A DNA stretch of 64,000 nt from Atractiella rhizophila (Eukaryota): assembly GCA_021432655.1 (NCBI GenBank), contig MU271185.1:162287-226286 (forward strand), read 5' to 3'. Made by a program: the position numbers and the translations under genes. The notes under the pieces were generated by a model that saw nothing but the letters and a program-made list of their open reading frames with translations, did not search any database and was not told where the DNA came from. Within the stretch, counting starts at the first letter, position 1. Each line of letters starts with the position of its first letter. Shown piece by piece: positions 52,162 to 52,465 of this stretch.

Positions 52162-52465
52162 ATGAACTTCTCCTACGCCTTCGCCGCTGTCGTAGCTTTC
52201 GTCGTGTTCGTGAGACCGTCTTGCTTCCCAACCTGCATGTTGACTGTTCTACAGAGCCCAGACGGTTGCTAGTCCTACTCCCAACCCGGGTGGTTGCGTG
52301 ACCGTATGATAGCCCTTTGTTTTTCACTCATTTATTGATAATCCTTTCCTACTGTCCCCAGGTTTGCGATGTAAGCCCACCACTTTTCATAAAGGTCAAT
52401 GATCTGACCGTGACCACTTTCCGTAGCCTGTTACGCTCAAATGCGAGACCTATTGCGACCCTTAA
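52162..52465 (+). CDS. 46-aa secreted four-cysteine peptide precursor, copy 1 (exons 52162-52205, 52255-52303, 52362-52370, 52427-52465)
   Basis: Splices to MNFSYAFAAVVAFVVAQTVASPTPNPGGCVTVCDPVTLKCETYCDP*. Introns of 49/58/56 nt have GT-AG ends; introns 1 and 3 have TTGAC/CTGAC branch motifs. ACAATG start context. Confidence 0.8.

Follow-up and report, generated by a model that had tools for sequence, protein, structure and literature searches.

The 64,000-nt stretch of Atractiella rhizophila DNA analysed here (the window; contig MU271185.1 of assembly GCA_021432655.1, positions 162,287 to 226,286 of the forward strand) contains a very small spliced gene whose start codon lies at position 52,162 and which carries a 46-codon open reading frame (ORF). 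An earlier note, made from the sequence alone, had proposed that this mini-gene encodes a tiny secreted disulfide peptide and occurs in three copies. The gene lies in the first of two tandem units, each about 2.2 kb long, and the second unit holds a second copy on the same strand (Table 1).

Structure and transcription of the mini-gene

The coding sequence (CDS) totals 141 nt and is divided into four pieces. In both copies the coding exons measure 44, 49, 9 and 39 nt and are separated by GT..AG introns of 49-58 nt; in copy 2, whose coding span is 54376-54677, eight of eight printed intron ends are GT..AG. Joining the exons by their coordinates, in frame 0, gave the 46-residue product. That the mini-gene is real and spliced in this manner seems to us almost certain. 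The third coding exon is a 9-nt micro-exon in phase 0-0, so that skipping it would preserve the reading frame at the cost of one Cys. An exon of this size is not exceptional in itself and is ordinary among mushroom-type fungi; in Coprinopsis, internal exons no longer than 15 nt occur in 1,165 gene models (~9%), according to the accessible text of PMC12230235.

Table 1. Positions of the mini-gene copies, the tandem units and the back-to-front sequence, numbered from the first letter of the window.
Feature	Positions	Strand	Basis or remark
Copy 1, 5' leader (at least)	52018..52161	+	Identical to copy 2 54232-54375, which the spliced X3 contig covers
Copy 1, coding exon 1, 44 nt: ATG and the greater part of the hydrophobic signal-like stretch	52162..52205	+	Donor GTTCGT next; joint seen in copy 2
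Copy 1, intron 1, 49 nt, GTTCGT..CAG	52206..52254	+	Equivalent joint of copy 2, 54419>54469, in X3
Copy 1, coding exon 2, 49 nt: last part of the signal-like stretch, then S-P-T-P-N-P and G-G-C-V-T	52255..52303	+	Coordinate splicing
Copy 1, intron 2, 58 nt, GTATGA..CAG	52304..52361	+	4 substitutions relative to copy 2
Copy 1, micro-exon 3, 9 nt, GTTTGCGAT = V-C-D, phase 0-0	52362..52370	+	TTGCGAT between the sides of X3 joint 54519>54639
Copy 1, intron 3, 56 nt, GTAAGC..TAG, CTGAC branch-like site	52371..52426	+	7 substitutions and a 2-nt indel relative to copy 2
Copy 1, coding part of exon 4, 39 nt including stop TAA: P-V-T-L-K-C-E-T-Y-C-D-P	52427..52465	+	Coordinate splicing
Copy 1, 3'-UTR intron, 48 nt, GT..AG, 16 nt past the stop codon	52482..52529	+	Equivalent joint 54691>54740 (cut +2) in X3
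Copy 1, last 3'-UTR exon, at least this far	52530..52648	+	Equivalent of 54742-54860, the X3 contig end
Copy 2, stretch spanned by the X3 spliced contig	54232..54860	+	CDS exons 54376-54419, 54469-54517, 54576-54584, 54639-54677; UTR intron 54694-54741
Tandem unit 1, 2.2 kb, carries copy 1	51162..53368	.	Self-BLAST against 53369-55580, 97.2% over 2217 columns
Tandem unit 2, carries copy 2	53369..55580	.	Self-BLAST
"Third copy": gene letters reversed without complement; no gene on either strand as written	61265..61568	.	Minus strand gives copy 1 complemented; full exon identity (100%) after reversal of the window only
Back-to-front block, directly after the N run 60152-60176	60177..64000	.	Letter-reversed, equals 49717-53368 then 55581-55762

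Transcript evidence came from public runs. Ten runs share words with positions 51900-53000, and runs X1, X3, X4 and X7 were compared with the window over 54100-62600; contig depths in this comparison are no basis for copy number or expression level. The small word shares of the other six runs (X2, X5, X6 and X8-X10) say nothing about habitat or expression. A single 420-nt contig of X3 (depth 20.2), which starts at 54232, holds all three coding junctions and the junction in the 3' untranslated region (UTR). Its joint 54419>54469 skips 49 nt between GT and AG, and 54691>54740 skips 48 nt, again GT..AG with the cut at +2. The joint 54519>54639 leaves seven letters, TTGCGAT, between its two sides, and these represent the micro-exon; seven letters are seen, and not nine, because the aligner assigned the initial two letters of GTTTGCGAT to the donor's genomic GT. 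The mRNA built from our coordinates is 420 nt long, the same length as the contig. X3 behaves as an RNA run, since in addition to the mini-gene joints it contains one on the minus strand (56557>56925, GT..AG) that belongs to the neighbouring gene. The DNA-like run X1 yielded no contig with the mini-gene joints, and one of its contigs (54100-55223) reads through the introns. The exon and intron plan drawn in the earlier note, including an intron in the 3' UTR, stands in both copies, and the three coding junctions for which it had sought transcripts are all found in the X3 contig, together with the micro-exon and the UTR intron. We regard this evidence for a spliced transcript as clear but thin. 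The contig from X7, a soil metatranscriptome, carries letters of the copy 1 type, a weak hint of activity of this fungus in soil.

The 46-codon ORF is the longest ATG-initiated ORF of the 420-nt mRNA, and an A occupies the -3 position of its start. Two elements precede this ATG in the copy 1 leader, a 13-codon upstream ORF (uORF) and a TATA-like CATAAAAG. As the TATA-like element lies downstream of the uORF, many transcripts may start past the uORF; the 5' start of the transcript is not defined by contig ends. The uORF occupies 52035-52076 in copy 1 and 54249-54290 in copy 2, within the leader covered by the X3 contig.

Comparison of the two copies showed a sharp partition of their differences. 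No substitutions were found in the 141 columns of the CDS, nor in the 420 columns of the mature mRNA, whereas the introns were substituted at 14 of 211 columns and carried a 2-nt indel, and the remainder of the unit was substituted at 35 of 1585 (Fisher test: exons vs introns, 1.6e-7; exons vs flanks, 4.7e-4). Identical exons with differing introns had been claimed from the sequence, down to a CTGAC/CTAAC branch-like difference, which we located at 52406/54618. The exons of the third version of the gene, once its letters are reversed (see below), likewise differ at 0 of 420 positions, and all 16 of the 16 differences between the X1 contig and copy 2 fall either in introns or 3' of the X3 contig end at 54860. 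These comparisons show that the mature RNA, not specifically the protein, is under constraint: an unsubstituted CDS offers no synonymous or non-synonymous signal, and conservation is therefore no proof of translation.

The introns also diverge more (14/211, 6.6%) than the surrounding non-transcribed DNA (35/1585, 2.2%; Fisher 9.7e-4). All intron differences (52206-52529 vs 54420-54741) reside in intron 2, intron 3 and the UTR intron; intron 1 is identical in the two copies.

The predicted peptide and its competing explanations

The N-terminus of the 46-residue product resembles a signal peptide. Residues 1-20 have a mean Kyte-Doolittle hydropathy of 1.61 and no charged residue, with a hydrophobic h-region of the customary kind (7-15 residues near the N-terminus), and small residues at -1 and -3 (rule applied by eye) are found in V-V-A, up to residue 16, and in T-V-A, up to residue 20. 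Directly after the T-V-A site follow S-P, T-P and N-P, in the dipeptide register of Ste13/DPP-IV substrates, and then G-G, a non-substrate pair at which such an enzyme would halt. The whole precursor contains one Lys, no Arg and no dibasic site, and the mature 20-mer that would follow the dipeptides has a net charge of -2.

The C-terminal part is distinguished by its cysteines. These occupy residues 29, 33, 40 and 44 in the spacing C-x3-C-x6-C-x3-C, and they belong to two C-x-T-x-C-D-P units that are alike at 5 of 7 residues and 17 of 21 nt; both the spacing and the internal repeat are present as the earlier note had described them. The first unit is formed only when exon 2, the micro-exon and exon 4 are spliced together, and a repeat completed in this way would be difficult to account for if selection did not see the spliced frame. 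Among 2,000,000 random 26-mers with the codon make-up of the window, 82 had exactly four Cys arranged as CX3C-X4-20-CX3C, and none combined this arrangement with such a repeat.

Our preferred reading, which we hold at a probability of roughly 0.6, is that the locus is an expressed spliced gene encoding a 46-codon secretory prepropeptide that gives rise to a mature four-Cys peptide. We consider it probable that the peptide is translated and secreted; trimming of the X-Pro run to a 20-mer is tentative, and we would put it at somewhat short of even odds.

Under the secretory reading, the uncharged hydrophobic first ~20 residues would act as the signal peptide. Entry into the endoplasmic reticulum (ER) would occur after translation, because a chain of only 46 residues is off the ribosome before its signal can be read; such post-translational import is established for small presecretory proteins. 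The likeliest point of signal cleavage would be after T-V-A, with V-V-A also suiting the small-residue rule. In the ER the four Cys would form two disulfides, yielding a small stapled hairpin. Ste13/DPP-IV-type dipeptidyl aminopeptidases prefer X-Pro and X-Ala, and promelittin provides a precedent for this kind of trimming; an enzyme of this type in the late Golgi may remove S-P, T-P and N-P, or a single cut may be made after Pro-26. The anionic 20-mer would then be released from the hypha. For pro-alpha-factor, the accessible part of PMC8038962 describes removal of N-terminal dipeptides by Ste13 in the Golgi.

Searches for relatives returned nothing convincing; the protein and pattern searches were sensitive to near-identical N-termini or to the exact exon 4 residues, not to distant relatives. 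In a protein collection of 5.8 billion clusters, no candidate shared three 5-residue words with the frame 52093-52269 (59 residues, in which the peptide is represented by its first 15 residues alone). The degenerate pattern K-C-E-T-Y-C-D-P-stop had no match in metagenome contigs, and within the window tblastn and blastn-short searches for paralogues returned nothing beyond the direct pair and the reversed copy, all further matches having E >= 0.3. The motif strings KCETYCDP, SPTPNPGGC and CETYCDP were not found in the literature, and publications on small secreted peptides, micro-exons and X-Pro propeptides offered nothing specific to the peptide. Two sets of candidates were rejected. A 36-residue unspliced ORF gave one match among protein representatives (E = 2.8e-4, 33% identity to a 1682-residue protein), which we took as chance, and two C-x-T-x-C-D-P units four residues apart occurred at three metagenome loci, whose high G+C content (55-73%) and other Cys/Pro repeats mark them as unrelated. 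In the sense of these limited searches the gene is apparently unannotated; the novelty of the peptide is weakly tested.

Several observations weigh against the prepropeptide reading. Junction support comes from one contig of one run, whose type is not on record; X4, an RNA run by guess, has only an unspliced 151-nt contig over exon 1-exon 2 (depth 2), and X7 has one 203-nt contig (54643-54846, depth 2.8) that retains the UTR intron. The signal-like segment has no Lys or Arg before its hydrophobic core, and the positively charged n-region that is usual, if not obligatory, is missing. By length alone, a 46-codon ORF is no rarity for an RNA of 420 nt, the UTR exons show the same lack of variation as the CDS, and the leader contains the 13-codon uORF, provided that it truly begins so far upstream. 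S/T/P-rich stretches with alternating Pro are common linkers, and the X-Pro register may be a matter of chance. As no relative was found within the reach of our searches, which extended to near-identical N-termini and exact exon 4 residues, comparative support is lacking.

The most durable of the competing explanations, which we judge somewhat unlikely, accepts secretion and dispenses with the free 20-mer. The S/T/P stretch would be a linker, either O-glycosylated or plain, on a product of 26 to 30 residues that is perhaps retained in the cell wall, or else a single prolyl-endopeptidase cut would take the place of stepwise trimming. Ser or Thr beside Pro is a typical context for fungal O-mannosylation, and two cleavage sites, V-V-A (16) and T-V-A (20), both suit the -1/-3 rule. 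Ste13 processing is often incomplete, as far as the available text of PMC8038962 describes it. Against an untrimmed product stands the position of the three X-Pro dipeptides, which fill the interval from the better cleavage site to G-G-C exactly in register, as stepwise trimming requires.

We also considered that the transcript is real but non-coding or regulatory and that its 46-codon ORF is incidental, which is unlikely. Conservation of the UTR exons at the level of the CDS (0/420 over the mature mRNA), the unremarkable ORF length, the uORF and the absence of a homologous protein from searches sensitive only to near-identical N-termini would all fit such an RNA. They do not account for the signal-like N-terminus, for a twin CX3C arrangement that arose in only 82 of the random 26-mers and in none when the repeat was required, or for a repeat completed only through splicing. 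A search of Rfam with 51000-55800 gave no match, and introns of 48-58 nt are too short for hosting small nucleolar RNAs.

Two further alternatives concern the nature of the mature peptide. An alpha-hairpinin-like antimicrobial, a twin CX3C helical hairpin directed at competitors, seems quite unlikely. The Cys spacing suits the 4C motif CX3C-X4-20-CX3C published in PMC11591084, but the accessible part of that article describes the family from plants and warns that the motif is widespread. The net charge of -2 is also at odds with this assignment, as are CX3C segments that contain beta-branched V or T and are each followed by D-P, which we expect to be poor for helices. Still less likely is a secreted copper- or zinc-binding mini-peptide that would employ four thiols and two Asp with no disulfides. 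In its favour are the acidic net charge and the arrangement of the four Cys as a pair of CxxxC-D-P half-sites, and CxxxC copper sites are known, for example in Sco proteins, but Cys passing through the ER are normally oxidised, and the peptide has no metallothionein-like CxC or CC clusters.

With regard to function, we lean towards a diffusible signal or an effector-like interaction peptide over a membrane-active antimicrobial; a net charge of -2 makes a classical cationic antimicrobial role less likely. The options that remain are a signal, an effector-like interaction peptide or a metal binder, and which of these the peptide could be may depend on the lifestyle of the fungus. A bolder proposal, rather doubtful in its entirety, is that the gene represents an undescribed fungal family of 20-residue, two-disulfide, twin C-x-T-x-C-D-P peptides that would be exported post-translationally, trimmed stepwise at X-Pro and used as an extracellular signal or in interaction with a host or competitors, and that gene finders have missed. 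To our knowledge, melittin-like maturation has not been described for a fungal disulfide peptide. Fungal annotations routinely drop genes so small, and this strictly conserved CDS of 141 nt, spliced from four pieces, illustrates how a putative secreted mini-peptide can stay hidden. Should the product be translated and exported, the few fungal extracellular peptides would gain a new cysteine framework.

Back-to-front blocks and gene neighbourhood

The third copy claimed in the earlier note proved to be reversed text inside a probably artefactual block, and is not a gene as written. The minus strand at 61265-61568 reads as copy 1 complemented but not reversed, and all four exons appear there at 100% only after the letters of the window are reversed. 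The same holds for a far larger region. Positions 60362-64000 are the reverse of 49717-53368 (98.3% over 3662 columns), and 60178-62552 are the reverse of 53369-55762, so that the block, read backwards, contains the locus with a single 2.2-kb unit. A second reversed block spans approximately 44244-47578, in which 44296-46591 are the reverse of 34141-36448 (95.5%). A census of 18-mers in the window counted 12,960 mirrored matches, as against 44 reverse-complement and 16 complement-only matches.

Both reversed blocks adjoin N runs (60152-60176 and 47579-47603), and both are devoid of long ORFs as written, the long ORFs returning after letter reversal. When the redundant part 62553-64000 was letter-reversed and compared with the F-box-like coding region 49717-51161, seven single-base indels were found in 1445 nt; this part resembles sequence of lower quality or an allele in decay. 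In DNA synthesis the copy of a strand is its antiparallel complement, and we know of no replication or recombination process that writes a strand backwards. For this reason the reversed blocks are probably an artefact of assembly or data handling. Since letter reversal of the block yields the locus with one unit, the tandem pair itself may be two haplotypes laid in tandem, and the safe gene count is one or two, not three. Three functional copies are highly improbable: the exon letters are indeed present three times, but the third occurrence is reversed without complement, in a window where mirrored 18-mers vastly outnumber reverse-complement ones and inside a block that adjoins an N run and regains its long ORFs only when letter-reversed, and even the direct pair may be haplotypes. 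Kilobase-long reversed blocks inflate copy counts, and they would corrupt gene prediction and comparison made on this record.

No contig of X1, X3, X4 or X7 was placed on 60348-62600, with X1 covering 54100-60149, although the uncovered part by itself proves nothing. X1 and X3 both extend past 60149 with letters unlike the window, and the 12-letter start of this loose end is absent from the window in four orientations. The same two runs replace 191 bases of the window by 11 other letters at 56598-56790, in or beside a Ser/Arg-rich gene; either strains or haplotypes differ structurally here, or the assembly is in error.

The mini-gene is flanked by two genes on the minus strand. Upstream is a 634-residue frame (49229-51133) whose nearest atlas clusters are fungal F-box proteins and which has several paralogues in the window. 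Downstream is a Ser/Arg/Pro-rich gene (55400-56647) that is transcribed in X3. A Pfam search with five ORFs beside the gene found no families, and the surroundings contained nothing that suggests a peptide-modifying cluster. The window also holds an F-box gene, a centrosomin/Mto1-like gene, two NmrA-like genes and a subtilase. The six relatives listed for the subtilase (five with a named source, all fungal) are 26-40% identical to it, the first being from a Tulasnella species at 31%. Taken with the short GT..AG introns, these relatives are a weak pointer to a filamentous fungus, probably a basidiomycete.

The F-box-like family comprises at least five paralogues with 64-75% DNA identity, scattered across the window on both strands (457-2485, 2790-4825, 20546-22025, 38348-39843 and 49229-51133), and the NmrA-like genes (27579-29507 and 29660-31500) form a tandem pair with 75.7% DNA identity.

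Comparison with known peptide systems

The precursor shares superficial traits with several classes of small genes and peptides from which it otherwise departs. MSDIN precursors (amatoxins and cycloamanides) of Amanita and Galerina consist of an MSDIN leader, a Pro-flanked core and a C-terminal follower, with no signal peptide and few or no Cys pairs. Ours is likewise a tiny basidiomycete precursor with Pro before the core and at its end, but it lacks such a leader or follower, and its ORF ends at the second Pro. Kex2-repeat or dikaritin-type precursors of fungal RiPPs (peptides made by ribosomes and modified after translation) carry repeated cores split by dibasic K-R or R-R sites; our product has no dibasic site. 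Basidiomycete lipopeptide pheromone precursors end in a CaaX box and have no signal peptide, whereas here just two residues (D-P) come after the last Cys and the N-terminus resembles a signal peptide.

Schistosome micro-exon genes, in which most of the CDS lies in many symmetric micro-exons of 36 nt or less, resemble the mini-gene in having a signal-like N-terminus, a small product and a symmetric micro-exon that could be skipped in frame. Only one of our four coding exons is micro, however, and the others are short simply because the CDS is 141 nt.

Twin CX3C mini-peptides include the kappa-hefutoxins of scorpions and the framework-XIV conotoxins. The alpha-hairpinins are plant antimicrobial 4C peptides of the form CX3C-X4-20-CX3C, a motif that is itself widespread according to the accessible text of PMC11591084. 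Our peptide matches them in its CX3C-Xn-CX3C arrangement (n = 6, within 4-20), its small size and its derivation from a larger precursor, and differs in being fungal, in its net charge of -2, in the poor helix formers between its Cys and in half-sites that end in D-P. The resemblance is by Cys motif alone.

In maturation, the precursor would resemble those processed by Ste13/DPP-IV, such as yeast alpha-factor and honeybee promelittin, with which it shares a run of dipeptides ending in Pro or Ala directly before the mature peptide, within reach of a Golgi dipeptidyl aminopeptidase. Unlike alpha-factor, our precursor has no Kex2 dibasic site and no repeated pheromone units. Its dipeptide run would come straight after the presumed signal-peptidase site, an arrangement that appears promelittin-like rather than alpha-factor-like.

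The nearest fungal precedent in working mode is Qsp1 of Cryptococcus neoformans. Qsp1 is not known to contain cysteines, whereas our peptide has four and is preceded by an X-Pro pro-stretch, and the two are likened by mode, not by sequence. Qsp1 is an 11-residue quorum-sensing peptide whose pro-form is exported; the serine protease Pqp1 matures it extracellularly, after which Opt1 re-imports it, as set out in the available part of PMC7537855. In both cases a basidiomycete would produce a very small secreted peptide from a tiny, protease-trimmed precursor.

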